Shown: one piece after another, positions 746 through 21,400 of the stretch
Layout: every line of letters starts with the position of its first letter
How positions within the stretch are numbered: position 1 is the stretch's first letter
Assembly (NCBI GenBank): GCA_021163505.1
Contig: JAGGVE010000004.1
Span: 1 to 46,001, forward strand
DNA from: Candidatus Iainarchaeum sp.
Lineage (GTDB): Archaea > Iainarchaeota > Iainarchaeia > Iainarchaeales > DTGL01
Reading direction: 5' to 3'
Length of the DNA stretch: 46,001 nucleotides
Position numbers and translations under genes: made by a program
Notes under the pieces: model-generated
Seen by the model: only the letters and a program-made list of their open reading frames with translations
What the model was told of the DNA's origin: nothing
The model's database searches: none

Positions 746-2365
746 ATGATGTATGCGGAGAGGGCTTTTGCCCCTTTATTTATTATTTTATATTCAATTC
801 TCTTAGCATCGCTAGTTTTGGGTGCTGAAGTTAGTGGTACAATTGGAGATGAAAATGCACACGCTGGAGCAAGCGGAGATGTGAAAATAGGTGGAGATGC
901 TTATTTAGCGAATGGTTACGCTTGCACTGCTGATTGGGAGTGTTATTCTGGGCATTGTGCGAGCGATTTTGATGGAAGTGGCTCTTGGTGTGCGCCAGCA
1001 ACAAGCTGTGCGCATGATGGGACTATTTACGCAGATGGGGAATCTACTTGTTACGGAACTCGAATAAAGGAAACCTGCACAAGTGGCTCGTGGGTGGCTG
1101 AAGCATGTTCTGGCTCCTGCGAAAATGGTGTTTGCGTTGGTGGGGCTACGCCAACTCCAACACCACCAACAGGTGGTGGAGGCGCTCCAGGCGGTGGCGC
1201 TGGCGGTGCTGGTCCAGGAGCAAGCCCAACACCAACTCCTGAAACTCCAACAAGCGAGGAAGTGTTCCACACAAGCACAACGTATGTGCCAAGTGCAGAG
1301 GAGCTGGAGGAATTGCTTACAGAAGCGGGTTTCTCGCAGGAGGAGATTGAGGAGGCGACTCAGCAGGCAGAGAATGTTGAAATAACTAAGGAGCTAAGCG
1401 TTGTAAAAGAGATAGTGGATGGTGAAGAAAAATATACTAGCACATTTGAAGTTAGGGTACTCAATAAAAGCGCCAATAGATTCAGCGATATAACGATTGT
1501 GGAGAGCATTCCAAAGAATGTTGCGGAGCATGCAAGTGAAATACACTCGCTAAGCGATTTCAGGGTGCTTGAAGCAGACCCGGTAATTGCTTGGGATATT
1601 GCAAAGCTTGAGCCTAATGAAGTGGTTGTTATAGAGTATTGGGTTGAGAAAGAATTGCCTGAAGAAACCCTGAACGAGGTAAAAACTGCATTCTTTGCAG
1701 AAAAAGCAGAAATAGTGGAAGAAAAAACTGGTTCCCTTACTGTAACTCTAAAGGACGAACAGGGGAATATAATAAAAGAACCGGTTGCTGTTGAACTAAC
1801 TAATTTGGAAGGAAATGTGATAATTTCAAAAAGCAGCATTGATGGAAGGGCCGTATTTGAAAATATCCTTGAAGGAAAATATTACGTAGTAGTTGAGGAG
1901 AGTGCAAACTTTAAAGGAAGCAAAATGCTTGTTTATGTTGTCGCTGGCAAGGAAAAAACAGTGGAAATTACTTTAGAGAGTAAAATCGCCATAACGCCAA
2001 CGGTAACGCCAACAGCTACGCCTGCGGTGCCACCAAAAAAGCCAGATTATACGGGACTGATAATACTCATAATACTTGCCTGTCTTGCGTATTTAGGCTA
2101 CTACTTCTGGAAAAAGAAAGCTAAACCAGCGAAGGCAAAGAGAGCTAAGAGAAGAAGGTGGGCTGTTGAAGAAAAAGAGCATGAAGAGAAGCCTGCTGAA
2201 GAAAAACCGGCTGTTAGGGAAGAGGCGGCGAAGGAAAAGCCTGCTGAAGTAGTGCCAGAAGAGAAAGAAGAGGAAGAGAAACCAGTGGAAGAAGTACCTA
2301 AAGAAGAGCCTAAACCTCCGAGGAAAAAGAGGAAGAAAAGGGTAAGCAAATTTAGGCGCCCGTAG
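746..2365 (+). CDS. Type I membrane-anchored surface protein: signal peptide, Cys-rich domain, Pro/Gly linker, acidic beta domain, carboxypeptidase-regulatory-like domain, TM helix, long charged cytoplasmic tail
   Basis: GAGGTG RBS at about 738 (start may be the second ATG at 749). Hydrophobic N-terminus ending VLGA. Cys cluster at residues about 59-128. PTPTPPTGGGG linker. TGSLTVTLKDEQGN...EGKYYVVV repeat-domain signature. TM GLIILIILACLAYLGYYFW followed by KKKAK. Confidence 0.8.
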   Translation: MMYAERAFAPLFIILYSILLASLVLGAEVSGTIGDENAHAGASGDVKIGGDAYLANGYACTADWECYSGHCASDFDGSGSWCAPATSCAHDGTIYADGESTCYGTRIKETCTSGSWVAEACSGSCENGVCVGGATPTPTPPTGGGGAPGGGAGGAGPGASPTPTPETPTSEEVFHTSTTYVPSAEELEELLTEAGFSQEEIEEATQQAENVEITKELSVVKEIVDGEEKYTSTFEVRVLNKSANRFSDITIVESIPKNVAEHASEIHSLSDFRVLEADPVIAWDIAKLEPNEVVVIEYWVEKELPEETLNEVKTAFFAEKAEIVEEKTGSLTVTLKDEQGNIIKEPVAVELTNLEGNVIISKSSIDGRAVFENILEGKYYVVVEESANFKGSKMLVYVVAGKEKTVEITLESKIAITPTVTPTATPAVPPKKPDYTGLIILIILACLAYLGYYFWKKKAKPAKAKRAKRRRWAVEEKEHEEKPAEEKPAVREEAAKEKPAEVVPEEKEEEEKPVEEVPKEEPKPPRKKRKKRVSKFRRP

Positions 2366-2444
2366 CTTCATTTTGATTGGGAAGCCACTTTTTAGAGGAA
2401 GGTTTAAAAGAAAATTTGGGATTATTTTAATAGAGGCGAGGGAA

Positions 2445-2636
2445 ATGAGCAGGGTTATTGAAGTGATTTATAAGAACGGCGTATTCAAACCCTTTGGAAA
2501 GGTAAGATTGAAGGAAGGGGAAAGGTTTAAAATCATGTTAAAAAGGATTGATCTAAAGAAATTTGTGATGAGCAAGCTTGCAGAGAAGGAGATAAACAAA
2601 TTGGAAAAAAGGTTTGAAAATGAGAATATTTATTGA
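2445..2636 (+). CDS. AF2212/DUF104-like antitoxin (VapB-type)
   Basis: MSRVIEVIYKNGVFKP..KVRLKEGE is the typical AF2212-family N-terminus. ATG 2445 follows GAGGCGAGGG and is preferred to the track TTG at 2373. Overlaps the PIN gene start. Confidence 0.85.
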   Translation: MSRVIEVIYKNGVFKPFGKVRLKEGERFKIMLKRIDLKKFVMSKLAEKEINKLEKRFENENIY

Positions 2637-3088
2637 TAGCTCTGTTTTTATAAGACATTACTATGGAGTTGAAACTGCACTAACTCTTTTGGATACTGCA
2701 ATAAATAAAAACGATGCAGCTATTTCTCAAAATGTGGTTGAAGAGGTGTTTTTCAAGCTGTTATATATGGAAACCAAAAGAATCTACGGTAAAACAGGCA
2801 AATACAGAACTAAGAAAAATTTTATACGGAACCCTGAAAAATTTGGCCTTGTAAAAGAATATATTGAGGGGTTTTTTAATAGAAAGTATAGAACAGGATA
2901 TTATTGAGCTGTTGGAGGTAAATGAAGATATTTTAAGAGATTCTGTAAAAGTGTCCTTCACATACCGCTTGCTCCCAAACGATGCCCTGATTGCTGCTAC
3001 GTGCAAATATTATGGAATTAGGAAGATTGCTACATTTGATGAAGATTTTGATAGGGCAAGGTTTCTGGAAAGAGTGAATGTTCGCTGA
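2620..3088 (+). pseudogene. vapC: PIN-domain (VapC) toxin split by a +1 frameshift
   Basis: N-half MRIFIDSSVF...EEV (2620-2907) and C-half LLPNDALIAATC...IATFDEDF (to 3088) lie in different frames. They join at GAGGGGTTTTTTAAT (about 2866-2880). Deleting one G or T restores ...YIEGFLIESIEQ... and a protein of about 155 aa. Confidence 0.85.
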
Positions 3089-3135
3089 GCGCTTGCAGTT
3101 CAATTTAGCTCTAATTTTTAAAATTATTTCAGCAA

Positions 3136-3148
3136 AATTTATTTATAG
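3136..3148 (+). promoter_or_regulatory. Putative TATA box of the pilus ATPase operon
   Basis: TTTATTTATA about 22-30 nt upstream of ATG 3169, with no clear SD. This is compatible with a leaderless or short-leader transcript. Confidence 0.4.
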
Positions 3149-3168
3149 CTGCTGAGAGAGTTGGTTGC

Positions 3169-4923
3169 ATGCACCTAAAGCTTGATGCCGATTTGTGCGA
3201 ACAGTGCAAAGAAAAGCTATGTATGAAAGGCTGCCCCAATGGCTTGGATTTGAATGCTCTAAAGTGTGTGCATTGCGATCCTGATAAGGCACCGTGCGCA
3301 TTGGCGTGCAAGCAGGATGCGTTTTACAAGGTTACTGAACAGGTGCTTGCGATAGATGAGAGCAAATGCAATGGTTGCGGTGATTGCGTACTGGCATGTC
3401 CTTATGGGGCAATAACAATAAAGAATGGAAAAGCAAAGAAATGCGATCTGTGCGCAAGCTACAATTTTGAAATTGCATGCATAAATAACTGCAAGTATGG
3501 GGCTATAAAGGTAGAGAAAACCGAGCGGGAGATGAAAGAGATAGAAAGAGCGCTTGGTTGGTTTTGTTTTGAAGTAAAAGAAGGTGTGCAGAGGATTTAT
3601 AGGGAAAAACCAAAAATAATTGAAGCAAACAATGAGCTTTGGTACTTATTAGAATTACCTGAGCTTTCACTTGAGGAAGCAAAGCTTGTAAAATTTGCTC
3701 TTGAAGAATTCCAAAACAATGGCTACAAAGAAAAGGAGATTGAAAAAGCGCTTGCAAACTACTGCAGGAAGAACCTCATCGTGCTTGAAAAAGAGCAGAA
3801 GGATTATATAAAGCGCCTGCTGAAAAACCTAACTCAGTGCTACGGTCCTCTAAGCGAGCTCATCGCTGATGATGAGCTTGAGGAAATTGCTCTTATTGGG
3901 CTTGGCAGAGAGAAACCAGTAAAGGTTTTTCATCAGTGCTTTGGCTGGTGCAACTGCAACCTTTACTTTGCAACTGAGCAAGCGGTTAGAGCGCTTGTAA
4001 ATAGGATGCTCCAAAAAACAGAAAGAAGACTAACGCTGAACGCACCGCGAGTGAACGGCACGCTGCCAGATGGCTCAAGAATAAATGCAACACTGCCACC
4101 AGTGTCATTAGGTGAGCCTACCTTTACAATAAGGAAGTTCAATGTAAAGCGCTTTACGCCAGCTGAACTTATAAGAAATAAAACTTTTAGCTTGGAGCTC
4201 ATGGCATTTTTATGGTGCGTTATGCAGGCAGATTGCTCGCTGGTAATAGCTGGAAACACAGGCAGTGGAAAAACCACAAGCTTGAATGCAATATTCTCCT
4301 TCGTACCATTAAACGAGCGTATAGTGGTTATTGAAGAAACCCCGGAGCTTAAAATCCCACATAAGCATGTTGTGAAGCTAACAGTGTGCAGGGAAAAGGG
4401 AATAGAAATGCATAATCTTATTGAGGATTCGCTGAGGATGCGACCGGATAGGATTATTGTAAGCGAGATAAGAAGTGCTGAAGAAACAAAGGCTTTTATA
4501 AACACCCTGCTGGCTGGCCAGGGAAAGGGCAGTTATGCAACATTCCATGCAAATTCCGCTAAAGAAGCAGTAAAAAGGCTCGAATTTCTCGGAATAAGGA
4601 GCACAGACATAGCAAGCATTGATCTGCTTTTAATACAGAGGCGATGGCCTCGGGCAATGAATAAACGAATATTCGAAGAACGAAGAATGATTGAAGTGGC
4701 TGAACTCTCGGAAAAAGCCAAGCTAAGGATGCTTTACAGATTCAATTATAAAAAGAACAGGCTGATAAAAACCAACAAAAGCAGGCGCATAGCTGAGAAG
4801 ATTGAGAGAACATTTGGAGCGAGGGCAAGCAAGGTTATAAAGGAAAGGGAAAAAGCTCTGAAAAAATATTTGCAGGCAGGGAAAAACATTGTTGATTTTT
4901 TGAGTGAGGTAAATGTCCATTGA
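3169..4923 (+). CDS. Type II/IV secretion (VirB11/TadA/FlaI-like) ATPase with fused N-terminal 4x[4Fe-4S] ferredoxin-like domain
   Basis: Residues 1-115 contain 16 Cys in four groups, including CNGCGDCVLACP and KCDLC. ATPase motifs: LPDGSRIN, TFTIRKF, Walker A GNTGSGKTT, Asp-box IEETPEL, Walker B LRMRPDRIIVSEIR, His-box ATFHANS. Confidence 0.92.
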   Translation: MHLKLDADLCEQCKEKLCMKGCPNGLDLNALKCVHCDPDKAPCALACKQDAFYKVTEQVLAIDESKCNGCGDCVLACPYGAITIKNGKAKKCDLCASYNFEIACINNCKYGAIKVEKTEREMKEIERALGWFCFEVKEGVQRIYREKPKIIEANNELWYLLELPELSLEEAKLVKFALEEFQNNGYKEKEIEKALANYCRKNLIVLEKEQKDYIKRLLKNLTQCYGPLSELIADDELEEIALIGLGREKPVKVFHQCFGWCNCNLYFATEQAVRALVNRMLQKTERRLTLNAPRVNGTLPDGSRINATLPPVSLGEPTFTIRKFNVKRFTPAELIRNKTFSLELMAFLWCVMQADCSLVIAGNTGSGKTTSLNAIFSFVPLNERIVVIEETPELKIPHKHVVKLTVCREKGIEMHNLIEDSLRMRPDRIIVSEIRSAEETKAFINTLLAGQGKGSYATFHANSAKEAVKRLEFLGIRSTDIASIDLLLIQRRWPRAMNKRIFEERRMIEVAELSEKAKLRMLYRFNYKKNRLIKTNKSRRIAEKIERTFGARASKVIKEREKALKKYLQAGKNIVDFLSEVNVH

Positions 4924-5497
4924 TAATATTATAGAAAGGTACTTTGCAGGCAGAAAAGCCAAGGAAATAGAAGCACAGCTGGTGTTTTTTCTCATGGCTC
5001 TGCGCCTAAACCTTCTCTCCGGACTAAGCCTGGAAAGCTCTCTTAAGAAGGTGAAAAGTGAAGTAAGCGGGGCACTTGCAAAGGAACTCGCAAAGATTGA
5101 AAAAGAACTTGGGAAAGGAAAAGATATTGGCGAAGCGCTCTTGAATTCCGCTTCGCGTATAGAATCGCTTGAATTCAAAAGAGCGTTAAGCCATATAAGC
5201 GAAGTTGCGAGGAGTGGCTATTCTCGGAAGAGCGATACATTAAAGTTGCTCTGTGATGAGTTAATTGAGCTAAGAAAAACAAAGATGCGCGAGTTTTCTT
5301 CGAAGCTTGCAGTACTAAGCTTAATGTTCATAGCTGCAAGCGTAATAATGCCTGCATTATGGTTAGCCTTTGTAATAATGGGCTCTGCGTTCTTCGCATT
5401 GGATATAAGCGCCCTGCAAATATGGCTAAGCGTTACAGTAATCTTTCCAACAATCGCAGTACTGCTATTGCTCTATATAAAAGAAAAGTTTCCGTGA
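4913..5497 (+). CDS. TadB/TadC-like (type II secretion system F domain) membrane platform protein
   Basis: SGLSLESSL...GALAKELAKIEKELGKGKDIGEALLNSASRIESLEFKRAL T2SSF pattern, two C-terminal TM helices, and an overlap with the ATPase stop. Confidence 0.85.
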   Translation: MSIDNIIERYFAGRKAKEIEAQLVFFLMALRLNLLSGLSLESSLKKVKSEVSGALAKELAKIEKELGKGKDIGEALLNSASRIESLEFKRALSHISEVARSGYSRKSDTLKLLCDELIELRKTKMREFSSKLAVLSLMFIAASVIMPALWLAFVIMGSAFFALDISALQIWLSVTVIFPTIAVLLLLYIKEKFP

Positions 5498-5501
5498 TAA
5501 G

Positions 5502-6419
5502 ATGTTTGAAAGTATTGCAAAAGCATTGTTTGCAGAGGAAAGGGTTGAACGATTTAAATTCTTGCTTGGGCATGAGCTTGGATTAAGCATAAAGCGCGCT
5601 GAAATGCTAGCGCTAAGTATAGCGAGCGTATCTGCACTCATATTCTCAGTATTTGCTTTCCTATCTGATTTGAATGGAATTATTATAATTTTTGGGTTTG
5701 TTTGCGCGTTTGTTATTGCATACCTATTTTCCTTCTTCTTCTTTAGTTTTTTGGCAGAGCGAAAACAGAGAGAGAAAGAAAAGAATGCTAGCGTTGCTTT
5801 AATGCAAGCAAGCTTGCTTCCGGAGGGAACAACAGCAGAGCGGATAGTGAAGGAGCTAAGCAAAATGCATAACCCACTTGCCGAAGAATTCAAAATTGTG
5901 CTAAATGAAATAGGAAAAGGTGCCGAAATAAACAATGCATTGGAAAATTTGGCGAAGCGATGCAATGGCAGAGCGATCGCAAAACTAGTGCAATTATTAA
6001 AGATGGCTGATGTTACTGGCGGAGTAACGCCCGCTATGCTGCGAGAAAGTGCTAAGGAAATAGTTGATGAGCAGACACTGGCAAGGGAACGCGCTGCTTT
6101 GCTAACGATACAAAAAGCAACGCTTGTACTCAGCAGCATGATTTTAGTTCCATTTATTCTTGGAACGCTTGCAGGCATCACTAAAAACTTTGATTTAAGC
6201 TACTTGGATGTGCTTGAGCTTGGAAAAGCAAACCAAGCGGCATTGGTAGAAACAGCAGGGCTAGCGAGCAATGTTTATATAGTTGAGCTTGCAATAATCG
6301 CTTCGTTATTTTTGGGCATGCTTGAAAACAATACAAAGAGAGCAATAGCATACTTGCTTTTAATATTGCCTGTTGCTCTTTCCATATTTTATTTTGCTGT
6401 AAGCACCAAGATAGCTTGA
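5502..6419 (+). CDS. TadC/TadB-like (type II secretion system F domain) membrane platform protein
   Basis: Two N-terminal TMs, PLAEEFKIVLNEIGKGAEINNALENLAKR...TGG, three C-terminal TMs. Lies 4 nt after the previous gene. Confidence 0.85.
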   Translation: MFESIAKALFAEERVERFKFLLGHELGLSIKRAEMLALSIASVSALIFSVFAFLSDLNGIIIIFGFVCAFVIAYLFSFFFFSFLAERKQREKEKNASVALMQASLLPEGTTAERIVKELSKMHNPLAEEFKIVLNEIGKGAEINNALENLAKRCNGRAIAKLVQLLKMADVTGGVTPAMLRESAKEIVDEQTLARERAALLTIQKATLVLSSMILVPFILGTLAGITKNFDLSYLDVLELGKANQAALVETAGLASNVYIVELAIIASLFLGMLENNTKRAIAYLLLILPVALSIFYFAVSTKIA

Positions 6420-6573: not shown

Positions 6574-6807
6574 ATGGAAATGCAGTTTGATGTAATAGTG
6601 ATTCAGGATAGCTCTGGCGGATTTATTGGATTTGTTCCAGAACTGCCTGGTTGTCACACCCAGGGTGATACTCTAGATGAACTTATGGAAAATATAAAAG
6701 AAGCCGCAGAGCTCTATATAGAAACTCTTTCTAAGGAAGAAAAAGAAGAACTATTAAAACATAAAACTGAATTTATGGGCATGCAAAAAGTGAAAGTCAA
6801 TGCCTAA
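6574..6807 (+). CDS. hicB: HicB-family antitoxin (short form, no DNA-binding extension)
   Basis: GGFIGFVPELPGCHTQGDTLDELMENIKEAAELYIE is the canonical HicB/UPF0150 motif. Confidence 0.92.
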   Translation: MEMQFDVIVIQDSSGGFIGFVPELPGCHTQGDTLDELMENIKEAAELYIETLSKEEKEELLKHKTEFMGMQKVKVNA

Positions 6808-7039
6808 AATACCTTCCCTAAGCGGAGTTAAGCTCATAAAAATTCTTGAAAAAGTCGGCTTTCAGCGTGTACGACAGAAAGGCTCCCATGTAATTCTGAT
6901 TAATAGCTTCGGAGTTAGAATTGTTGTTCCAATACACCCAAACAGGAAGCTCAAGCAAGGCCTAGTTAGAGTAATAATTAAAGAAGCTGGACTTACTAGG
7001 AAAGAATTTCTTAAACTGTTAAAAAATAGGAAAGCATAG
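6800..7039 (+). CDS. hicA: HicA-family mRNA interferase toxin
   Basis: LIKILEKVGF..VRQKGSHVIL...IVVPIH...GLVRVIIKEAGL with the catalytic GSH. Overlaps hicB by 8 nt. Confidence 0.92.
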   Translation: MPKIPSLSGVKLIKILEKVGFQRVRQKGSHVILINSFGVRIVVPIHPNRKLKQGLVRVIIKEAGLTRKEFLKLLKNRKA

Positions 7040-8413: not shown

Positions 8414-9340
8414 ATGCCAATAAGAAGAAAAAGGCCCTGGAAAGGGGTTAAAGAAACCAAGAGGGCGCAGGTAAGTAAAGTAAACGTAGACCATGTTATA
8501 GAGGAAAAGCACAGAGTGTACCATACAAAAGAAATTAATGTTACGCGGTTGCCGCCGGAAATAAGGGAAAAGGTTTTGGAAAGCCCCGAGGAAATAACTG
8601 AGGCTTTGAGAAAGGTAATGGCCGAAAAAGAGCAGCCAAAAAAGGAAAAGGAAAAACCAAAGCATGAGTTTGCAGATATTCCCTTTCCACCTGGAAAGGT
8701 GTATACTGGCAAGGGAAAAGATGTTCACACTCTTTACAACTTATGGAGCAAGGCGCTGAATAATCAGCTAAAAATGGTAAAAACCTCAATAGAAAGCGCA
8801 CAAAAAACTTTGAAAACAATGGAGGATGAATTAAGAGAAAAAAGGCATGGTAAATACGTAGCAAAAACCCTTGGTACTCTGTTTAAGATTTGGAGCCCCT
8901 CTGAAATTAGAGAGATTGCCGAACATCCAATAAGAACTATGAGCGAAGGGGCCATCGGAACAAGGTGGAAGATAAGAAGATTAAGGGCGGAACTAGAAAT
9001 AATAGCTCGGCATAGAGAAGAATGGGTCAAACTCTATGAAAGGGAACTGCAATTACTGAAAGAGGCGTATGAAAAATACAAAGAAGATCCGACCAAAGAA
9101 AATGCAGAAAGGTTTGCAAAGGTATTGAGAAAGATTATAGAAATGAATGCTGAATTACAACAGGCTTGCACAGCTGAAGCTTTTACCAGATGGAAGCATT
9201 GGAGATTTTTTAAGGACGGATTTGTTGATAAACAGTACTACAAAAGAGTTATAGCCTATGGTAAAAGGTTAAGAAAAGATCCGAAATATATCCCAAGGTT
9301 ATTTGCAGCTGCGTTTGCGGAATTAGACAGAAGACGCTAA
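8414..9340 (+). CDS. Basic alpha-helical/coiled-coil hypothetical protein, 308 aa
   Basis: GGGTGA RBS before ATG 8414 (MPIRRKRPW...), preferred to the track GTG at 8405. Long open frame. Stop overlaps the convergent gene by 4 nt. Confidence 0.8.
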   Translation: MPIRRKRPWKGVKETKRAQVSKVNVDHVIEEKHRVYHTKEINVTRLPPEIREKVLESPEEITEALRKVMAEKEQPKKEKEKPKHEFADIPFPPGKVYTGKGKDVHTLYNLWSKALNNQLKMVKTSIESAQKTLKTMEDELREKRHGKYVAKTLGTLFKIWSPSEIREIAEHPIRTMSEGAIGTRWKIRRLRAELEIIARHREEWVKLYERELQLLKEAYEKYKEDPTKENAERFAKVLRKIIEMNAELQQACTAEAFTRWKHWRFFKDGFVDKQYYKRVIAYGKRLRKDPKYIPRLFAAAFAELDRRR

Positions 9341-12300
9341 CATCGCTTTTTTATGAAATATATGCGCACGCTGACAAAGGAAAGCACAAGCAGCCCTATA
9401 TAAATTATAAGCAGTAATGGTTGCTCTGGCAGCGAAGGCAGATTGAATGGACCACCTCCCAAACCAGCCTGAATGTTCATTATATTATCGCCTGGCTTTG
9501 TTATTATTTGGCCGCCTGGTGTTGCCTGTGTTAGAGCACCGCTTCTAAACGCTTCAAGAAGAGGTAAAAGTTGAGCATTTTCTACATGCCACATTCCCTT
9601 TTCAGGGTCATACCAGAACGAGCCATTGGGTCCTTGAGCGCTTACAAGCGGCTCTGGAGGATAATTATTATAAACAACCATTGGTCTGCCATCCTCGGCA
9701 GTAACCCCTATATTATGCTCACGGCCATTAGCATCCTTTATGTGTATCCCTTCTGGAGTAACTTCAAAGGATTCTATAGGTGCTTCATACACCTCGCCTG
9801 TTTCCTTATTTATTATTCGTATATAGTCTTTGCAACATTCTATTCCAACACACTTGCCATCTGGTTCATATCTGGAAAAGAAAATAAAGCGCCTTGTCGG
9901 AGTTTCGAGAACAGTAAAGGGCCCTGCATTTTGTAGGGCCTGATTAAAACTATTAACCTTATATGCTTCATAGCCACCTGATGCTGATGGGAGAGCCTCT
10001 ATGGAAAATGCTGGTTCTGGACACATTGTTTCTGGGTTTATAACTTCCTCAGGTTTTAAGCGGATCCCGCCAATGAAATCCTGCGGAACATCCACGGCTT
10101 TACTGCGCTTTAGCCATATTATCAGTTCGTGAGTGTCGGGCTTATATATTATAACGCCATTTTCAAAAATAATTGATTCGAGCAGGCCTGCCTCTTTCCG
10201 CACACTGTTGGTTAAAGCAGTATTGCGGTTGGCTTGTATAATCACTTTTGCATTCTCCCCTTCAACCATTCTCCTTGGTGTACCCTCCGCAACTATCCTC
10301 TTCTGATCGTTTAAGGCATGGATGCTATACATATCAGTGTTTATGGAAAGAACCTTTCCAAATACTGGCTCGAGGTTTAGCCTTTCCCTGTTTGGGTTCT
10401 CATACGGAACGCCGATCTGATATTCTATTCCCTGCAGTATGCAATCAGAAACCTCGGGAACAAGAACGAAAAGCTCAGAATCAATGTTCATTTCAAACAA
10501 TGGCTCGTTCGAATCAGGCAGCCCAACTAAAGTGTAGCGCTTTGGAATCTCTTCTGCGGGAATGTTTGTATTTGTGGATGTCAGGCGAGAAGCAATATTA
10601 TTATCAACAATAGTGTCAAGAATGTTTCCATTTTGATCTATAAGGAAGATTTTGCCCGCGTTAAAATCTACGAGCAATGCAGTATTCTTATCAGCTGAGC
10701 TTATTATTTTATGACCCGATGTTTTGTATTTCATTGGCGAAGTTTCACCTTTAAACCAGAAAGAGAACAGTTGTTCACCCTCAAGCGTTCCGACAGTTGA
10801 ACCTTCCATATGAACATTGGCTTGCACAATGTTGTCCTGCCTTGCACCATGAACAAACTGTTCAACCATTGAGTTTAATTTTTCTGCTGCCTGAGTGGTA
10901 TAGCTATTTTTATCAGAAACGAACATTGATGTTAGGGCATTGGCAAATGCATCTATGGAATTCAGGGCAGCTTCTGTAGAGAGCTGATTTGCCGCTTCCG
11001 TTTTATTACTCTGCTCTTCAGGAGCAGGTACAAATATATGTGTGTAGTAGCCACCGTCTACGTCTACACAGTCTTGAAGCTTTGGAGCAATAACAAGTTG
11101 CTGGAAAGTACTTCCAAATACGCCTGCAAACCCAAAAAGCCAATACCCTGCATTTTCTGCAAAAGCAAGGCCCCCGCCAATAAGTGCTGGATTCATCCAT
11201 TTGGGTAATGAGCCCAGCGTTACTTTCTCCACAGCATCTCTGCAGGTTTCTTTCTTGCGTATCGCTTCTTCCAAGGAAATCCTGGTGCTTCCTGAAACAC
11301 CCTGTTCTTTCCCTTCAAGATCTGTGTGGTGTGTGAATGTTATAAGAGTGCTACCCTTTTTCTTCGCTTTTTCCGAAACAATATCTTCAAGTATATAGGC
11401 GTCAAGCTTTCTGCCAGAATAAAAGCTTGAAAGGAAGTAGGAATAATCCCTGCCTGCACGGATTGAAACTCCGCAGCTTTCACAGCTCTCTGGAGTTGTG
11501 GCATAAAATGCAAGGTTTTCAACAGTATTTCTAATCTGATTGTTTTTGAGTTTATTATATATTTCCTGCAGTGGTTTGAAATTTGCAAACAGGTTTTTGG
11601 CGATGAATTCCCAAGGCATAACTTGAAGCATTCGGTTGAACATATCGCCTTGGTCAGAGCCTTCGTGTGAAAAAAAGTCTATAAATGCATCATTATAGAG
11701 CTCGCTTGAGCCAAGAGGCCAGCGCACCTCTCGCCAAGTATCTGGGAGCATATATGCGGAAGCCCACCTTTGATTTGCACCGCGTTTGCCAATCCAGTAA
11801 AGGTTAAAGAGAGCAGTCCATTTTATTCCGCCTTTTGGCCTCATATAGTTGTGGAAGAATTTATCTTGGTAAGAGATCGCTCTATCGAGCAAACTTAAAT
11901 AGCGCCTCTTCATAAATCCCTGAGCTTCCAAAGTATGCCTCATATAATCTGTATTCAAAGGAGCAAATAGCTTGAGATTCAGCAGGTTCCTTTCTTCGAG
12001 AAGCTTTGAAGCGAAATCTTCTGGGCTGAGCTCAGCAGCAAGGGTTTTTCCTTCTGAATATAAAGGAATTGAACCTGTAGCATGTTTTTTTATTTGGGGC
12101 AGGCTCCAATCTGCAACAGGTACAACATTTCCGCTGTCAAGCTTAACAAACATATCTCTGTATCTGTACCAGTTGGTTTCAAGGTCCTCAACAGTAACAT
12201 CACGTATGTGCCTCCCCGCAGGTTCCAAACGCCAGAGCTTTAGATTCCTGCCTGTTGTTTCATATATGGAGCCTGCAAAATGTCCGTCCTTTCTGAATTT

Positions 12301-13872
12301 ATCAAGCAAATCATACATATATGTTGAATCTCCTGCCAGCCAAGGTGGCGAGGTTGCGCCCTTCTGCTTCACGCTGTACGTCCATAGCCCTGTTGGGCTG
12401 CTCCTTGCAAACCATCCTGGAAGATCGGGTATAACCATAGAATCGGAGTAATCTATTATAACATTGCTCACAACCTTGCCGGTATCTATGCGTGCACCAA
12501 TTTCAGCCGGTGACCCAAATCCGTAAACTTTACGTATAGCGCTGTAACGCTTTTCAGCATGTTTTATCAAATCTGCTTGGGTTTTTGTATAGATGTCCAG
12601 GTCCTTTACAAATTTGTAAAGCTCTCTCTGAGTAATCGGATCATCTATTTTTCTCAGCCATCCATCTGGGGCAAGCCATTCCTTAACAAGCTTGTCTCTG
12701 GTTCCTGGATTTAGAAGAGCATAGCCCTTTGTCCAGCCCTGGCCTTCACTGAGCAATGCTCGAAGCTTCCCCACCTCTGGGTACTGTGTGGCTCTTAACT
12801 TCAATCTTGCTCTGAGACGTCTACCGAAAAAACTATTTGGATTAGCATAAAGCTTCCTTCGCATATAGCTCGCTATGCTGCTATCAGAGAAGCGCCAGGG
12901 AAATACCTTGCTCATTCCAAGATGCTTAAATAATAGGCGTCCCTTTCCAAGCAGGGTCGGCATAACTGTGGAAAACGTCATATCAAACGAAAACCACTGG
13001 TTATAGTATTTGTCGAAAAGCGAATATATAGAAATTACACAATCCGCACTGTTGCAGGTTGTTTGCCCATATGCATAGAAGTTGTATGTGAGAATTGAAT
13101 TTGGAATAACCTTCCCTGGAACCCTAACATAGGTTTCTATATTCGCATCATTGACATCGGTAAAAGCCAAACGCATTTTGAGGTCTTCTTCTGCACTTTC
13201 AGGCAGGCCAAGCTGTTCCCTTATGTGCCTGTAATCCTCATCTGTGAGATCTTCCTGATTTTTATCCTTAAGGGCAGGTACAGAATCTTTAAGCACCTTC
13301 CATAGATTCTTAAAGTCGCCTGTTATTCCAGTGCCAGAATTGCGCAGAGAAAGCTGCTTGCCGGCAAGCGGGCATGGAATATTCTTATCCTTTAAATTTA
13401 CGCATCGTCCAACGCGAAGCGTATCGGTGAGCACTATACCAAAAGCGTATGGGCCATTTATCCAGTTATCCGATAGGTGGATTGCACTATTTAGATCAAA
13501 CTTCTGGTCTGCAAGCTCAACCTTTTGCGCCTGCCCAGACTCTTTACCCAGAGGGATTATCACAACAGGGTTCTCAAGCTTATCCTGTTCCCGTGTTTTG
13601 CCATTGCTTCCAAACTCAGAACCAGTAAAACCATCTGAAAGAAGCTTTAAAATATTAAAAGAGTCCTCTGTGCTAAGCTGTCCAATATCACAGGTAAAGT
13701 GAGCTCTCTTCTCTGCTGCACTTTTTTGACCCTGTAGGAATAAGCTTTTACTTTCAACCAGACCATATGTGTAATTGGCATTGAATAGCAGAGCAATAAT
13801 AACAGCTACAAAAAAATCATAGATAAGTGAGCGCACACCTTTACTGCCCTTCCTTGTATCGTTTTTCAGCAT
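9337..13872 (-). CDS. Large (1511 aa) membrane protein of unknown function with N-terminal signal/TM, internal hydrophobic segments and C-terminal TM
   Basis: AAGGAG RBS upstream on the minus strand. Hydrophobic FFVAVIIALLF N-terminus. Paired cysteines in the acidic flanking regions. C-terminal LLLIIYIGLLVLSFVSVRIYFIKKR anchor. Confidence 0.9.
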   Translation of the reverse strand: MLKNDTRKGSKGVRSLIYDFFVAVIIALLFNANYTYGLVESKSLFLQGQKSAAEKRAHFTCDIGQLSTEDSFNILKLLSDGFTGSEFGSNGKTREQDKLENPVVIIPLGKESGQAQKVELADQKFDLNSAIHLSDNWINGPYAFGIVLTDTLRVGRCVNLKDKNIPCPLAGKQLSLRNSGTGITGDFKNLWKVLKDSVPALKDKNQEDLTDEDYRHIREQLGLPESAEEDLKMRLAFTDVNDANIETYVRVPGKVIPNSILTYNFYAYGQTTCNSADCVISIYSLFDKYYNQWFSFDMTFSTVMPTLLGKGRLLFKHLGMSKVFPWRFSDSSIASYMRRKLYANPNSFFGRRLRARLKLRATQYPEVGKLRALLSEGQGWTKGYALLNPGTRDKLVKEWLAPDGWLRKIDDPITQRELYKFVKDLDIYTKTQADLIKHAEKRYSAIRKVYGFGSPAEIGARIDTGKVVSNVIIDYSDSMVIPDLPGWFARSSPTGLWTYSVKQKGATSPPWLAGDSTYMYDLLDKFRKDGHFAGSIYETTGRNLKLWRLEPAGRHIRDVTVEDLETNWYRYRDMFVKLDSGNVVPVADWSLPQIKKHATGSIPLYSEGKTLAAELSPEDFASKLLEERNLLNLKLFAPLNTDYMRHTLEAQGFMKRRYLSLLDRAISYQDKFFHNYMRPKGGIKWTALFNLYWIGKRGANQRWASAYMLPDTWREVRWPLGSSELYNDAFIDFFSHEGSDQGDMFNRMLQVMPWEFIAKNLFANFKPLQEIYNKLKNNQIRNTVENLAFYATTPESCESCGVSIRAGRDYSYFLSSFYSGRKLDAYILEDIVSEKAKKKGSTLITFTHHTDLEGKEQGVSGSTRISLEEAIRKKETCRDAVEKVTLGSLPKWMNPALIGGGLAFAENAGYWLFGFAGVFGSTFQQLVIAPKLQDCVDVDGGYYTHIFVPAPEEQSNKTEAANQLSTEAALNSIDAFANALTSMFVSDKNSYTTQAAEKLNSMVEQFVHGARQDNIVQANVHMEGSTVGTLEGEQLFSFWFKGETSPMKYKTSGHKIISSADKNTALLVDFNAGKIFLIDQNGNILDTIVDNNIASRLTSTNTNIPAEEIPKRYTLVGLPDSNEPLFEMNIDSELFVLVPEVSDCILQGIEYQIGVPYENPNRERLNLEPVFGKVLSINTDMYSIHALNDQKRIVAEGTPRRMVEGENAKVIIQANRNTALTNSVRKEAGLLESIIFENGVIIYKPDTHELIIWLKRSKAVDVPQDFIGGIRLKPEEVINPETMCPEPAFSIEALPSASGGYEAYKVNSFNQALQNAGPFTVLETPTRRFIFFSRYEPDGKCVGIECCKDYIRIINKETGEVYEAPIESFEVTPEGIHIKDANGREHNIGVTAEDGRPMVVYNNYPPEPLVSAQGPNGSFWYDPEKGMWHVENAQLLPLLEAFRSGALTQATPGGQIITKPGDNIMNIQAGLGGGPFNLPSLPEQPLLLIIYIGLLVLSFVSVRIYFIKKRC

Positions 13873-15402: not shown

Positions 15403-18400
15403 ATGCTTCTGGATTATTTAAAAGATTTTTATTCAAGGATTGAAGATAAATGGTATGCGCTTTTGGATTTCTTAAGTGCGCGTGGCTTGCCAGCAAATGC
15501 ATATGCTGATTTTTTGGAAAAGAGAGGGATACCATCACTTCCAACAACTTTGGCAATCTTCGTCCTTATTTTCCTCCTGATATTTGCACTTGCCACTCCT
15601 AACACGCTTGATGTTTCTTTAAATATTAGCATAAAGGATGATTATGGGCAGGCACTTCGAAACGTTTATCTAAAAATAGAAACAGTTGAAGGGCAGACAA
15701 TAAAAACAAAGGCGTCTTCTTACAATGGGGATATAATAAAACTTGAGAATGTTCCACTAAACACAAAGCTGATTATCACTGCATCAAAGAAAGGATACAG
15801 TAATGCAAGCACTGAAGTGGAGGTAAATTCCAAAAGACTAAGCGCAGAGCTTGTGCTTGCTAGAGAGATAGAGCTTATAACAGCAAGACTTCAGGTGCTT
15901 GACACCGAGTCTCAAACTGCAGTAACCATGCCCAAATGCCATGTTGAATTTGAGGGCAGTAAAATAGCAGGACATGCAATAGGTTCTGGGATTGTGGAGT
16001 TTGTAGGAGTGCCCGCAAACATGGAACTGCACCTACAATGTGAAGCTGACGGTTACGAATCCGTGGATACATTCATAAAATTCTCTTCAGATGAAACACA
16101 AAAGATTGAGCTTGTACCAAAAACAGCAGAGCTTGCCGATGTTAAGTCACTCCTTATAATAGTAAAAGATTATGAAACAAAGGAACTTATCAGAGGAGCA
16201 AGGATTCTGATAACCAAAGCAAAAAGTGAAGAAGTGATTGCAGATGAAAACGTGGATAACGGACAGTACGTAGCTAAAATAGCTAGCGGTAGCATTATAA
16301 CTATAAGTGTCAGCAAAGAAGGGTACCTTCCATACACAAGCGGTTCAATAACAGTAAGGAGTGATGGTGAATTCCCAGTGCTTCTTAAAAGAGGAGGGAA
16401 AACGCTCCTTGTAAGGGTGCTCAACAAAGACCATGTGCAACTCGTAAACGTTAGCGTTAAGCTATTTGATGAGGTTCAGAACCTCATAAGAGAGGCAAAA
16501 ACAGATTTCACCGGCAGTGCGGTATTTGAAGGGATCGATGCGAGTAAAAAGCATATTGTAACCGCATACTACGCAGGCTTTCTACCAGGCTTTAAAGAAC
16601 TGACTCCAGAAGAACTCAGTAAATCAAACGAGGTAACAATTATACTTGCAAAGGCAACACTGGAGAATTCAGGCATGGCAACATTCAGAATAAAGGGCGA
16701 GAATGGTGAAGAGCTTGCGAACGCTTCAATTGAAATATACAGGATTATAAATGGAAAGAAGGTACCTTTGGGGATGGGGACATTGAAAACAAATTATCGC
16801 GGAGAGCTCACAACAATGCTGCCTGCCGGCGACTATATAGCAAAAATTGAAACACCATTGTATGCAAAAGAATATGAATTTAGCATAGAGGCTGGTGAAG
16901 AGAAAACCTTTGAGGTCACAGCAAGCAAAATTCCTTCTGTTAAAATAATACGTCTTGTAGATAAGGAAGGGAACCCAATCAAAGGTAGGGCGGTGGTAAC
17001 CACCCTTTCCGGAGAAGAACTCTACAATGGGCCTATAAGAAATGGGCAGGTGGAGTTTGATTCCAAGGGGAATGAAACTGTAAGAATAAATGTAATAAGC
17101 GAGGATGGAAAAACCTTTGAAGGGGAGGTAAGGCTTGGTAAAGAAAAAATAACAGAGGTAGAGGTTGCCAACGAAGAGGGGCCTGCAACATTGGAACCGA
17201 AAATAGAATTCCTTGGCATTACAAACGCGAACAATGAGGTCCTTGAAGGAGCGATAAAGGATCAATATGTATGGGCGAAATTCAGGGTAACATTCCCAAG
17301 CTGCGAAGAAGGCGGCGTGCATATAAGAGTGGGCCGCGATGATATCAGATTTGCAGATTCGCAGGCAGTTGGTATTTATGGGTTTGATGGAAGAGCAAGT
17401 TCATTCACCTATGGGCTCAGTTACCATGCGCCCTTAGGGCAGGTAACGGATCTTGCAAATAGAGGAAGGGCTGGAATAAAGAACAAGTGGATCAATATTA
17501 ATTTTAAAAACCCCGCAAACGAAGTGTTATTCGCTGTTAAAATAAAGGCGGACAAGGCATTCTCTGCGGAAAGCTTTGAGCTGCATTACAGGGCATGGGC
17601 AAAGGTTGCAGGGTCTATTTACCGCGATCCTGCTGATGAGGTATTGCTTTTGCAACCTTACAACGACCAGAAACACGGATTGTATGCAGAAACATACAAG
17701 GAGAATATAAGGGTTTTGGAAAGCGCGGCTGAATGCGAAGAAGGCATATGCCTTAAAATGGAATTCTTTGATGGGAGCGAGCGCATACCTGCTGAGCAGT
17801 TTAGGCCAAGAGTTGGAAAAGACTATATGCTTATAGTGGAGATAACCTCTATGCAAGATGGCCAGGGAAAGATAACGGTCGCTACACAAAATGAGCCAAT
17901 GACGCTGCTTTTCTCACAGATTAGAGATCCAAAGATTGGTTTGCTTCCAAGGGATAATTATACAAATATAGAGGTGTATGCGCCGATAGCCCTGGCAAAG
18001 GGAATTAGCAGAGAGGTAGGTGCAGCGTTTCAGACTATGAGCGAGGGTGGTGCAAAAATAACTGTGACAATAGAAATTGGTGAGAAAACAGTTAGCAGAG
18101 AGCTTTATTTCAACATATATGGGCCAAAGAGGCTTGGTGTAACTCTCTCCGAACCGGAGAATGTTCCTCTCGGCAATAACCTTGAAGTATTTGTGAAAGA
18201 TCAAGAAACAGGCGAGCCTGTAACAAATGCAAGGATTGTACTATCGAAAGCAGCAAGGCCGATTATAGAAACTTTAGGAGACGGAACCCAAGACAACGGC
18301 GCTAACGGCAGGTATGTTTTAAAAACCTCTGAGCTTTCCCCCGGAAAGTATGAGCTAACAATAGAAGCTGAAGACTCTGAACCATACAATCAAGAGCTGG

Positions 18401-21400
18401 TAATAGGTGCGGAGAAGATAATTGAGATAGAATCACCTATAGAAATAGTTCTGGAAAAGGGCGAAGCGGAAAAAACCATAGTAAAAACTATACATAACAA
18501 CTCAGATGAAACCATAAGAAACCTGATGTATGAATTTGTACCTGCAGGAAACTGGCCTGAAGAGCTTGCAATAAATATAACTCTCCCGCCAGAAATAAGG
18601 CCAAGAAGTTCTGCAACGATACAGATAATAGCAACATATAGCGGTGATGAAGAAGCAACGATAACCGCCACAGGAACGCTTACGGTTTATGGTACACTGG
18701 ATGTTGCAATCCAGGGAAGTGCAGATGTCATCATAAAATACAATCAGAAACTCCCAGAAGAATGCATAGAAATAGAACCCGATGAAGTTGCACTTGAGAT
18801 GATAGGTAAGGCAAATCAGAGAGAAGAGCTTGCTTTCAGCATAAAATATAACGAAGCAGAGGGCTGCATAGGAACTCTTAGGTTTACGGAGAGACTTGAG
18901 ATCGATGACCCAAATCTGCAATTGATTCCAAAGGAATTTGAAATCTCCCCAGGAGAAACTAAAGAAGTAACATTGGTTCTTGTAAACGGCATTGATCGTA
19001 CAGGCACTCTGGAAATGCCACTTGCAGGTGTTTTGCTTTTTGATGCAACAAGCTTAACAAAAGCCATGAAAGTTAGATTAAGTTTCACTGACCCAAGATT
19101 TTTGCTACAGACAAACGATAATATAGCGCTCTATATGAGCTACAATGAGCAAAGCGGGCTACTTGAAGGCTTCGCACCTCTCTATATGAAAAATATTGGC
19201 ACAAAACCGATAGAAAATATAAGGTGGAGCGTTGCTCCACCTTCGGGCATAGAGCTATACGTAACCGAAACACCACAGGCTGCAACGCTTCCCGGGCCTA
19301 CTGCTGTTGGCCCTGTAAATCTTGAACCAAGTCAGGAGCTTCCGCATCCGCTGACGCTCTATGCAAAAAGTTCCAACCGCTCGTTAGAAAGGGGACCGCA
19401 TAGAGCAGAGATACGCATAACAGCGCAGGTAGAGGGTACACAGTTTGAAAAGGTCGTTACTGTCTGGGTATTCGTTTCGCCTGCAGAGTGCCTCAAGATA
19501 ACTCCGAAAGAGGAACTTATATTTGCAAGTGAAGATGCAAGCCAGGGGGTGATAACAAAAACTGTAGAGATATTCAACGGATGCGGTGAGATAATTAGAG
19601 ATATTATGCTTGAGCCAGAATATCTCGGTCCGAATCAGATAAGCCTGTTTGTACCAGCTGGCCCCTATCTATACCCGGATCAGCGCGTTGAAGCACAGAT
19701 TATGCTAAATAAGGCAGGGGACTATTTCAATAGTGAAAGGCCTGATGCTATTAAAGTAAAAGGCCTTCTTGTGAACAGCCAGCACTTCACAGAGTCAAAT
19801 CCGCTTATGGTAATAGCTGAGATCGGACTGCGTCCCGAAACAGAGGCAGGACCAAGCTATACAGAAATAAGCCTCCCTCTATGCGAAGATGAAACTGTAT
19901 TCAAAACAGTGAGATTTCCGATGCAGAGCGCAGATACCGATTGTGAAGTAGCATATTGCGATGCACTTCAGCTCTCTCAGTATATAGCGGATAAAATAAA
20001 GGAAAATATAAATATGGTGAAGGAGAAGATTCAGGACAATGGTGCTGATGTGAGAAACTACCCTTTCTGTCAGGAAGGTTCGCAATTCTGTACATTCACT
20101 GCAATAGGCGTCATCTCACAGCCCTATAAAGTTTATATGAACCACGATAACCTTACAACGGATGTTCTCCAAAACGTGGTGAAAAACACCGATGGATTAA
20201 ACAACATGGTTGTGAGGTATGCCTCTGGCACCCTTAATGAGATTCTACAAACAGCAACTGGTTTTACAGCAAACCAGATCTACCTTGAGAAACCTTTGAA
20301 AGGATGTGGCCGTTACTACATTTCCATCCAAGGAGCAGTGCAACAGGTCCAGGGAGAACTCGAAGAGGATAGCATTATAATATTCATCAAGCTCATCAGC
20401 GATCGTGCAATAACACCTGAATGTACCCTAAAGGTGCAAAACTTCCTTAACTTCCTACCTGAAGATCGCGGACTTACGCTCACATCCTCAATGAACACGT
20501 GGCTTGGCATAGTGCAGGCAGATCCAGAGCTTAGTGAATTAGGAAGAGGTATTGCGGAGGCGCTGTTTAGCACCCCTGAACGGGTTGCTCCAAACACCAG
20601 TTCAAATAAATTGAAACTTATACTTGAACAGATCCCAAATGGCTCAATAGTTGAACTGAAAATAGATCAACACTCAACGGTTGAAGCAAATCCAGCAACC
20701 ATCTTACTTCTGATAAACTGGCTCTATGGAGAAGAGAATGAAAAATTCCGATCAGAAGTTGCCAAGAAGGCAAAGTATGCATTGCAGCAGCTGAAACAGG
20801 GCTCATTTGAAATTGAAGCATGTATAAGCAATGATGAAACATACATGAGAATAATGAAGCTTGAAAGCGTTGGGGAATTGAAAATCGAACATGAGAAGTA
20901 TATAGAGCTATATTATGATGCTGAAACATGCACAGATATTAATGTTGTGAGCAACATTCCAGAAAATGTTGCACTGCGAACAAACTGGAGTGCTCTTAAT
21001 CCAACCGAAAAATCAGGTATAAAAGACGTTTACTTCAAGCTCGATGGCTCAAGGATCGAGGAGTACTCAAACGAGCAAGGAATTCGTGGAACACCCATTG
21101 CCCTTGAAGAAGTGCCTGGATTTAAGGGCCTTTACAAAAAGAGCCTGCAGCTCTGTGTTGTTGGCGATGACGGCTTAATCACACAGGCAGCAGGCAAGAA
21201 GATAAAGATCAAGGCAAAAAGCCTAAGCATAGCAACCAAGGAAATGAAAGAGTGGGAGGAAATTGAGTTGAGGGTCTGCGGGATACACCCGCATAGTTTA
21301 ATAGAAAGGATGGAAGGCGTAGAGGTTGAACCCGGCGAAGAGAAGGTTTTCTATACCTCACTTGGATGGAAAGGAGAGCCAGAAAGTATAAGTATTCAGG

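Follow-up and report, generated by a model that had tools for sequence, protein, structure and literature searches.

A sixteen-cysteine ferredoxin module fused to a type IV filament ATPase in archaea of the phylum Iainarchaeota

The subject of this analysis is a fused gene in a stretch of 46,001 nucleotides from the tiny, uncultured vent archaeon Candidatus Iainarchaeum sp. (assembly GCA_021163505.1, contig JAGGVE010000004.1, positions 1 to 46,001), called the window below. On the forward strand, the open reading frame (ORF) 3169-4923 runs uninterrupted from ATG to TAA and encodes a protein of 584 aa; its 5' part specifies a 115-residue module with 16 cysteines, which is in frame with a secretion ATPase of the FlaI/GspE2/TadA-like type. 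The identity of the two parts and the reality of the ferredoxin-ATPase fusion are close to certain. The fusion is genuine, old, and inherited in many lineages of one DPANN phylum, and the ATPase, which is distinct from both FlaI and bacterial PilB, is the motor of a type IV filament of the archaeal Epd/Tad-like 'system 1'. The module is an optional part of this motor, as unfused orthologues occupy the same type of locus. A possible role of the module as an input domain of the motor is discussed below, together with several alternatives.

The fused gene and its product

The ferredoxin module occupies positions 3169..3513 (residues 1-115; this and all other features of the gene lie on the + strand). 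Its cysteines form four groups with precisely the spacings given in the original prediction, which had been made from the sequence alone: group I (C10/13/18/22, followed by proline) at 3196-3237, group II (C33/36/43/47) at 3265-3309, group III (C67/70/73/77, also followed by proline) at 3367-3402, and group IV (C92/95/104/108) at 3442-3492. Such an enrichment is not due to chance, since 17 of the 25 cysteines of the fused protein fall in residues 1-140. The linker (3514..3561, residues 116-131), which contains a helix at residues 119-129 in the secondary structure of the AlphaFold2 (AF2) model and ends in an LGW motif, leads to the secretion-ATPase body (3562..4923, residues 132-584), in which an N-terminal domain is followed by a C-terminal one of the RecA-like type. 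Within the body, the Pfam T2SSE domain covers 3952-4644 (residues 262-492), the Walker A motif GNTGSGKT is found at 4252-4275 (residues 362-369), and RMRPDRIIVSEIR, in the Walker B region, at 4435-4473 (residues 423-435); the stop codon of the gene is at 4921-4923. The full-length AF2 model of the fused protein has a predicted local distance difference test (pLDDT) value of 92.1 and a predicted template-modelling score (pTM) of 0.81.

The region 3500-3560, where the two domains could have been joined by an assembly error, is covered by Logan contigs from four of four runs, which belong to four studies and one of which is possibly the source of the window. The contigs crossing the junction span 3100-5000, 3100-3781, 3231-4616, and 3394-5000. 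They differ from the window by substitutions only, with no inserted or deleted letters, which upholds the in-frame fusion that had been predicted. Greater weight attaches to the fused homologues, which stem from NCBI, JGI, ENA, and Logan assemblies. The runs that contain half or more of the sampled words carry hydrothermal vent metagenome labels or a coded organism label, and run X9, labelled as a sediment metagenome (share 0.43), also spans the greater part of it. Judging by their labels, the runs come from habitats with redox stratification, vents and sediments among them.

Several lines of evidence assign the module to a family of electron-transfer proteins. Fer4-type Pfam matches cover residues 30-115, with Fer4_6 at 3.3e-10; over the same residues, Fer4_11 (PF13247), the CooF/DmsB-type dicluster family, passes its cut-off marginally (29.3 bits against 26.2, 9.8e-7). 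Partial NCBIfam matches to AegA, YgfT, DmsB, TtrB, and HydN are all far below the equivalog cut-offs. Group III is a canonical CxxCxxCxxxCP motif, and groups II-IV (residues 30-110) align with solved four-cluster subunits, namely 9mqx_E (4e-11), PsrB/NrfC (2vpw_B, 8e-10), HycB3 (1.6e-9), and FdnH and HycB (both at about 1e-7). As judged by fold, the module as a whole matches 9mqx_E, WOR5 (6x6u_B), HycB3 (7qv7_A), PsrB (2vpw_B), FdnH (1kqf_B), and HycB (7z0s_B), with template-modelling scores (TM-scores) of 0.57-0.61 on the query, obtained with a module-only model of middling confidence (pLDDT 71.8). Within the model of the whole protein, the same region has block means of 88-97.

The cysteines are conserved among orthologues: each of the 16 is present in 60-70 of 70 fused sequences, the misses being mostly truncated gene starts, and in a 12-row alignment of related genomes (A2) all 16 cysteines, the start methionine, and G130 are invariant. 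Module and ATPase evolve at similarly slow rates; for homologues P0004-P0008, the identity of the module is 94, 85, 74, 65, and 69%, against 96, 80, 72, 67, and 69% for the whole protein.

Where cysteines are missing, the losses are correlated between groups. In six sequences (P0055, P0058, P0123, P0132, P0201, and P0203), C10, C13, and C18 are absent together with C108, while C22 is retained. These sequences make up four groups, the ATPase parts of which are at most 48% identical between groups. In P0203, C33, C36, C43, and C77 are additionally absent, with C47 retained. Loss of C108 alone was observed in none of the 63 complete two-part sequences, that is, those with both parts present after hand-curation of a regular-expression table of cysteine losses. 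P0147, in which two cysteines of group I are gone and the last cysteine of group IV is kept, is a partial exception, and P0273 is ambiguous. The correlated losses argue that these cysteines are cluster ligands, and their pattern in natural variants suggests the ligand sets {10,13,18,108}, {33,36,43,77}, {67,70,73,47}, and {92,95,104,22}. Nested ligand pairing, of group I with IV and of group II with III, defines four-cluster proteins of the HycB/CooF/DmsB type. Sequence alignment, fold, and correlated loss of ligand sets thus all speak for the CooF/HydN/DmsB-type layout that had been proposed for the module, and binding of [4Fe-4S] clusters with the nested topology is predicted with high confidence. 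Complex prediction for the module (residues 1-118) and the ATPase body (residues 132-584) with four 4Fe-4S clusters gave a score of 0.00 and returned no answer.

The ATPase body matches the Pfam family T2SSE (PF00437) with 129.3 bits against a cut-off of 24.9 (1.8e-37). Its closest sequence matches are 2oap (GspE2 of A. fulgidus, 1.8e-47), CpaF (1.3e-41), and FlaI (4e-39), and Foldseek run on the AF2 model gave the same three proteins at 2.5e-35, 2e-30 (CpaF), and 2e-33 (FlaI), the first value being that of 2oap; TM-scores of the body against solved ATPases range from 0.53 to 0.62 (query) and from 0.60 to 0.72 (target). An alignment of 84 rows (A1) shows no variation in Walker A, in R423-R428, E433, and R435, which belong to the Walker B region with its catalytic glutamate, or in the His-box histidine H460. 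The best NCBIfam matches (FlaI, TadA, VirB11, and TrbB) are all far below the equivalog cut-offs, with 211.1 bits against 550 for the FlaI/ArlI equivalog NF058587 and 182.4 bits against 373.15 for the TadA family TIGR03819. Because of these scores, the ATPase is considered a member of a paralogous family, neither an archaellum motor nor a bacterial TadA. The earlier label of a pilus-type, VirB11/TadA-like ATPase thus holds as to the secretion ATPase, with the narrower meaning of an ATPase of archaeal type IV filaments of the Epd/Tad-like 'system 1'. No solved secretion ATPase covering the module was found by sequence or fold search, in line with the original prediction that characterised enzymes of this kind do not carry one.

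Two T2SSF genes follow the ATPase gene, as had been noticed earlier. The first (4913-5497, +), which overlaps the 3' end of the ATPase gene by 11 nt, encodes a half-size platform protein of 194 aa, TadB/TadC- or EpdJ/K-like, with one T2SSF domain (1.3e-11); the second (5502-6419, +) encodes a platform protein of 305 aa, likewise half-size and with one T2SSF domain (9.6e-8). Each of them has one cysteine within its first 140 residues. The first platform gene lies downstream of the ATPase gene in 10 of 11 related loci and the second is conserved in eight of 11, the other three loci stopping before its expected place. According to a recent census of archaeal type IV filaments, system 1 (Epd-like) has two platform genes, is present in Nanobdellati, and usually has scattered pilin genes (PMC13705601). 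Two platform genes adjoining the ATPase, the criterion of system 1, are what the locus contains.

No matches to class III-signal pilins (PF04021, DUF361) or to A24 prepilin peptidase (PF01478) were found on the contig of the window (C10). In the genome, PF04021 matches are located on contigs C30 and C39, and PF01478 matches on C34, C30, and C5; contig C30 holds class III-signal pilins, a prepilin peptidase, and another paralogue of the ATPase. The genome of the window (G000; 0.96 Mb in 52 contigs, 93.6% complete) encodes five T2SSE paralogues, one of which carries the module. Each of the five has an N-terminal extension of its own, 140-410 residues ahead of T2SSE and with no Pfam family.

Distribution of the fusion

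The homologue set consisted of the 120 best proteins matched by the whole fused protein, and a homologue was called fused if it had at least 10 cysteines in its first 150 residues; such homologues are about 550-620 aa long. The fused architecture was found in 69 of these 120, so both parts are encoded as one protein in relatives as well. One homologue from JGI bears the name 'Flp pilus assembly CpaF family ATPase/Fe-S-cluster-containing hydrogenase component 2'. An ESM Atlas cluster of 184 members, all from Archaea and most often from Candidatus Iainarchaeota, has T2SSE in 100% and Fer4 in 83% of its members. Named homologues come from 'Candidatus Diapherotrites' or 'Iainarchaeum' archaea, that is, from a phylum of DPANN/Nanobdellati.

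The phylum was surveyed in 201 sampled Iainarchaeota genomes (by database names) with a 131-residue N-terminal query at E 1e-8 or better. The module was matched in 55 genomes, in 14 of the 58 genomes of high quality, and in 24 of 76 genera. For 50 of the 55 matches, the open frame is 442 aa or longer. Of the remaining ones, three are in short frames, possibly cut at contig ends, and two are other ferredoxins. The distribution of the module follows lineages, with 9/12 genomes in family f1 and 18/20 in f6, but 0/22 in f5, 1/34 in f7, 0/18 in f9, and 1/21 in f13. An orthologous or paralogous ATPase is present in all 201 genomes.

With the module itself as query, HMMER found 5167 matches among 1.8 billion representatives at E<=0.001 and 85 at E<=1e-10. 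Pfam scanning of 17 longer matches identified 13 T2SSE fusions, the other four being a molybdopterin oxidoreductase, an AegA-like protein, a polyferredoxin, and a 363-aa Fer4 protein. A homologue search with residues 1-131 returned 12 proteins, nine of them T2SSE proteins (eight already known and the new P0273) and three molybdopterin oxidoreductases. When genome contigs were scanned for the module pattern, using generic patterns, 79 of the best 80 loci were ordinary bacterial or archaeal ferredoxins; L017, from an uncultured archaeon, was the only one of the 80 with an in-frame ATPase downstream. In addition, four small stand-alone ferredoxins of 128-142 aa (P0146, P0178, P0192, and P0208) match residues 6-119 of the module, including its compact group I. 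These proteins are possibly fragments, or else examples of a free-living ferredoxin that gave rise to the module.

Unfused orthologues are about 470-500 aa long and have their N-terminus at the LGW motif (residues 129-131 of the fused protein). No stand-alone copy of the module was found in five genomes, 92-99% complete, that encode an unfused orthologue: four had no match of any kind, and one had a partial match to another ferredoxin. In a quick tree rooted on the paralogues from the same genome, fused lineages are basal and at least 12 changes of state are required, four of which are forced by well-supported branches. The rows of this tree were the 120 picked by score to the fused query, which favours distant fused forms, with P0060 dropped as too short; two 'unfused' rows, P0064 and P0072, resemble truncated gene calls. 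As the sampling of rows favours fused forms, a scenario of ancestral fusion followed by repeated loss was not adopted.

Possible role of the module

Type IV filament motors are among the best-studied machines, and their known inputs are nucleotides, cyclic di-GMP, zinc, and partner proteins. A conserved four-cluster ferredoxin on such a motor would be an input of a new kind, linking filament assembly to redox or iron-sulfur (Fe-S) status. Our preferred, though tentative, reading of the sequence data is that the module may be an accessory redox or Fe-S-integrity input domain that gates the filament motor; the fusion suggests that filament building is tied to the redox state of the cell. Gating by redox state or oxygen had also been proposed in the original prediction. 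With four [4Fe-4S] clusters bound (in some lineages only three or two), the module would act as a plug-in input domain. It would exchange electrons with the low-potential ferredoxin pool, or lose its clusters under oxidants or Fe-S shortage, and oligomerisation, engagement of the platform, and filament assembly would then depend on how the clusters at the N-terminal face of the hexamer, up to 24 in number, are occupied or reduced. The gating would be limited to one filament, the other four filament ATPases of the genome having no such input. A low-potential electron pool is available, since the genome encodes pyruvate:ferredoxin oxidoreductase (PFOR) and small ferredoxins; the alpha subunit of PFOR, a PFOR delta-like ORF, and a 72-aa ferredoxin were identified. 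It is doubtful, if conceivable, that the 24 clusters could form a ring serving as a redox clutch or an electron entry port, which would tie the fermentative ferredoxin pool of a genome-reduced DPANN archaeon directly to the assembly of a single surface filament, perhaps one for contact.

Several observations weigh against a role as an input domain, and the first three weaken any notion of the module as part of the core mechanism. First, the module was not found in 146 of the 201 sampled genomes, about three quarters, in loci that are otherwise alike, and the machine works without it, as several unfused orthologues keep the same neighbourhood of surface-protein and ATPase genes. Second, no column of the ATPase body is specific to fused forms, the sole such column being E121 in the linker; hence, there is no sequence trace of an allosteric interface. 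Third, the number of clusters differs by lineage, four, three, or two being predicted, and whole lineages make do with fewer. Fourth, the SufBD core (PF01458) was not found in the 93.6%-complete genome, while 14 of 14 control genomes have it; several ORFs with Fe-S-type cysteine motifs are present in the genome despite the lack of a SufBD match. Finally, four clusters in a linear module typically serve as an electron wire that links catalytic partners, and Fe-S sensors are usually single-cluster proteins.

Alternatively, the module might be a small, rigid structural or docking knob with constitutive clusters and no redox signal, which would give this system an interface of its own to the platform, the surface-protein tail, or some other accessory protein. 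We consider this unlikely, although it is the best of the alternatives. All five T2SSE paralogues have N-terminal extensions of their own, the module is gained or lost without change in the ATPase core, and a redox partner gene is absent from the locus. Comparable cases would be ABCE1, with its N-terminal di-cluster domain, and subunit D of archaeal RNA polymerase, with its cluster domain. A structural role also fits the view of N-terminal extensions as subsystem-specific interfaces expressed in the filament census (PMC13705601). On the other hand, 16 cysteines and four clusters would make a costly knob, and unfused orthologues keep the same neighbours, so they would not need the interface. 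Oxygen-labile clusters would, besides, render the knob redox-sensitive in practice, which blurs the distinction between a docking role and gating by an input domain.

An electron wire appears improbable. Electrons would in this case enter the module from PFOR or reduced ferredoxin and travel along its cluster chain to a partner at the membrane machine, for example, for the reduction of a filament, platform, or envelope component, and a function like that of the Sulfolobus pilus protein AapX (see below) would be built into the ATPase. Its closest relatives by sequence and fold are indeed all electron-transfer subunits (HycB, PsrB, FdnH, and the small subunits of AOR/WOR5), the nested four-cluster chain is preserved, and the redox protein AapX is reported to be essential in another archaeal pilus system. 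However, no acceptor is evident: an oxidoreductase, a haem protein, and a cysteine-rich platform are all absent from the conserved locus, and no family of a catalytic redox partner such as a hydrogenase, a molybdo- or tungsto-enzyme, or carbon monoxide dehydrogenase was found among the 18 neighbouring ORFs of the window or in the conserved related loci. Furthermore, the chain is shortened to three or two clusters in some lineages, and most relatives dispense with the module.

It is very unlikely that the cysteine groups bind zinc or another metal, or form a cysteine-rich fold without Fe-S clusters. A tetracysteine zinc site is reported for bacterial GspE/PilB (PMC5061722), but the canonical motif of group III, Fer4 matches down to 3e-10, the alignment of groups II-IV with solved [4Fe-4S] proteins and the agreeing fold, as well as the loss of ligands across motifs, which is typical of ferredoxin folds, all argue against it. 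An artefact of assembly or gene calling, or a decaying relic, can practically be dismissed given the independent contigs that bridge the junction, dozens of full-length homologues from separate sources, the invariant start methionine, cysteines, and ATPase motifs, and the confident AF2 model of the whole chain.

The proposed input-domain role lends itself to testing in vitro even though the organisms are uncultured, as the module can be separated from the ATPase, is small, and occurs naturally in versions with four, three, two, and no clusters. For the biology of DPANN archaea, such a role would mark one of several filament systems as specially regulated.

Neighbouring genes and comparison with known systems

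Upstream of the fused gene, at 746..2365 (+), lies the gene of a 539-aa surface protein (P0124) with a signal peptide, a cysteine-rich region, Pro/Thr linkers, a C-terminal membrane anchor, and a charged tail; its conserved middle domain (approximately residues 130-325) has no Pfam match. Homologues of P0124 are encoded directly upstream of the fused ATPase in six of 11 related loci and also adjoin unfused orthologues, e.g., in genomes G001, G032, G041, G053, and G190. The middle domain recurs in large surface proteins, with open frames of up to 3263 aa, in 87 of the 201 phylum genomes, and seems to be an unnamed phylum-wide surface domain. A linkage between the surface protein and the module was considered and rejected, since its homologues are so widespread, occur in module-free families (19/21 genomes of f13), and stand beside unfused orthologues too.

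Between the surface-protein and ATPase genes, an AF2212-like gene and PIN-domain ORFs (2373..3088, +; Pfam AF2212-like 1.2e-14, PIN 1.6e-12) are given here as context only. Apparently, they constitute a toxin-antitoxin pair inserted between the two genes; in the related loci L006-L009, the surface-protein gene ends less than 110 nt from the start of the ATPase gene, leaving no room for such a pair. The PIN domain appears to be divided between two overlapping ORFs, 2614-2907 and 2864-3088 (+), of which the second alone matches Pfam PIN, at profile positions 61-119 only. Perhaps 2614-3088 is a VapC-like gene with a frameshift, the AF2212-like gene next to it being its partner. A HicB/HicA toxin-antitoxin pair (6574-7039, +) follows directly after the platform genes; toxin-antitoxin-like pairs thus flank the filament locus on both sides.

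Most of the window is filled with giant genes. Four of them are on the + strand, at 15403-23451, 25246-32694, 32796-41672, and 41685-46001 (the last one running off the end), and encode proteins of 2682, 2482, 2958, and more than 1439 aa with CarboxypepD_reg, Big_1, and macroglobulin-like repeats; another one, of 1511 aa, is on the opposite strand (9337-13872, -). In the three giants whose starts were read, a short helix at the N-terminus precedes a membrane segment. The giant genes probably encode surface adhesins. A 562-aa ORF between two of them (23468-25156, +) has no Pfam match; its N-terminus, MNQKAFNLFTALLAFILIL, resembles a class III (prepilin-type) signal, and the product could be a large pilin-like protein. 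A scan for bacterial promoters and terminators, whose coverage leaves archaeal promoters outside, revealed no excess over shuffled sequence.

Elsewhere in the genome, on contig C6, two adjacent genes (9454-10296 and 10293-11180, +) encode MinD/ParA-like P-loop ATPases, each with an inserted di-cluster ferredoxin segment. By this assignment, which was made by reading the sequence and not by a family scan, the pair would be the second joining of an NTPase with a ferredoxin in this genome.

Among known motors, FlaI/ArlI (4ihq, 4ii7), GspE2 (2oap), and TadA/CpaF (8rjf, 9e24) have bodies like that of the fused ATPase, and none of them carries a cysteine-rich N-terminal module. The module resembles subunits of the HycB/CooF/HydN/PsrB/NrfC/DmsB type in its 16 cysteines in four groups, in fold, and in nested pairing. 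It is shorter than HycB/CooF-type subunits (about 115 residues against 150-290), with a gap of only 10 residues between groups I and II, and, unlike them, it is covalently attached to a motor ATPase and has no catalytic partner in the locus.

ABCE1/RLI shares, as an analogy only, the design of an NTPase that begins with an Fe-S domain of the ferredoxin-like type. ABCE1 has an N-terminal domain with two clusters and an ATP-binding cassette fold, against four predicted clusters and a RecA-like hexamer in the fused ATPase. The module matches ABCE1 (3bk7_A, 3j15_B) marginally, with E 0.06-0.07 over one motif, and an ABCE1-like ORF, recognised by reading the sequence rather than by a family scan, is present on contig C28 of the same genome.

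In gene order, the locus is similar to system 1/Epd of Methanococcus, one ATPase gene being followed by two single-T2SSF genes; the published description of Epd lists MMP0040 with MMP0038 and MMP0039 (PMC4187195). Unlike Epd-type loci, the contig of the window has no pilin or prepilin peptidase match. Inputs to the motors of bacterial type IV pili and type II secretion systems reportedly include the cyclic di-GMP-binding N-domain of MshE and the zinc site of GspE (PMC4624772, PMC5061722). The idea of an input is common to these accessory domains and the module, but ligands, folds, and positions differ, and none of the described domains is an Fe-S one.

No description of a ferredoxin-fused secretion ATPase was found in the literature searched, including the accessible texts of PMC4858521 and PMC13705601; in the latter text, the words 'ferredoxin' and '4Fe-4S' are absent, and its supplementary tables, which lay outside the search, could list the genes. 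The sequences are already in databases under automatic names, and it is as a recognised and analysed feature that the architecture appears to be new.

Archaeal pilus machines with a redox protein have a precedent, the nearest in biological terms being AapX (arCOG07320) of Sulfolobus, compared here by its published descriptions only. According to these, AapX is annotated as an Fe-S oxidoreductase, is required for assembly of the Aap pilus, has an unknown function, and is encoded together with the pilus ATPase and platform genes, and its homologues elsewhere carry a flavin adenine dinucleotide (FAD)-binding domain (PMC11178785, bioRxiv 10.1101/2023.08.07.552258). Like the predicted ferredoxin module, AapX would be a redox component of a pilus machine; it differs in being a separate, membrane-anchored protein of a different pilus subsystem. 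The covalent fusion may serve as a Rosetta-stone hint for the AapX puzzle, suggesting that redox modules act at the ATPase itself. A ring of clusters working as a clutch or entry port, if it exists, would together with AapX hint that archaeal type IV filaments are, as a general but overlooked rule, under redox control exerted at the motor.

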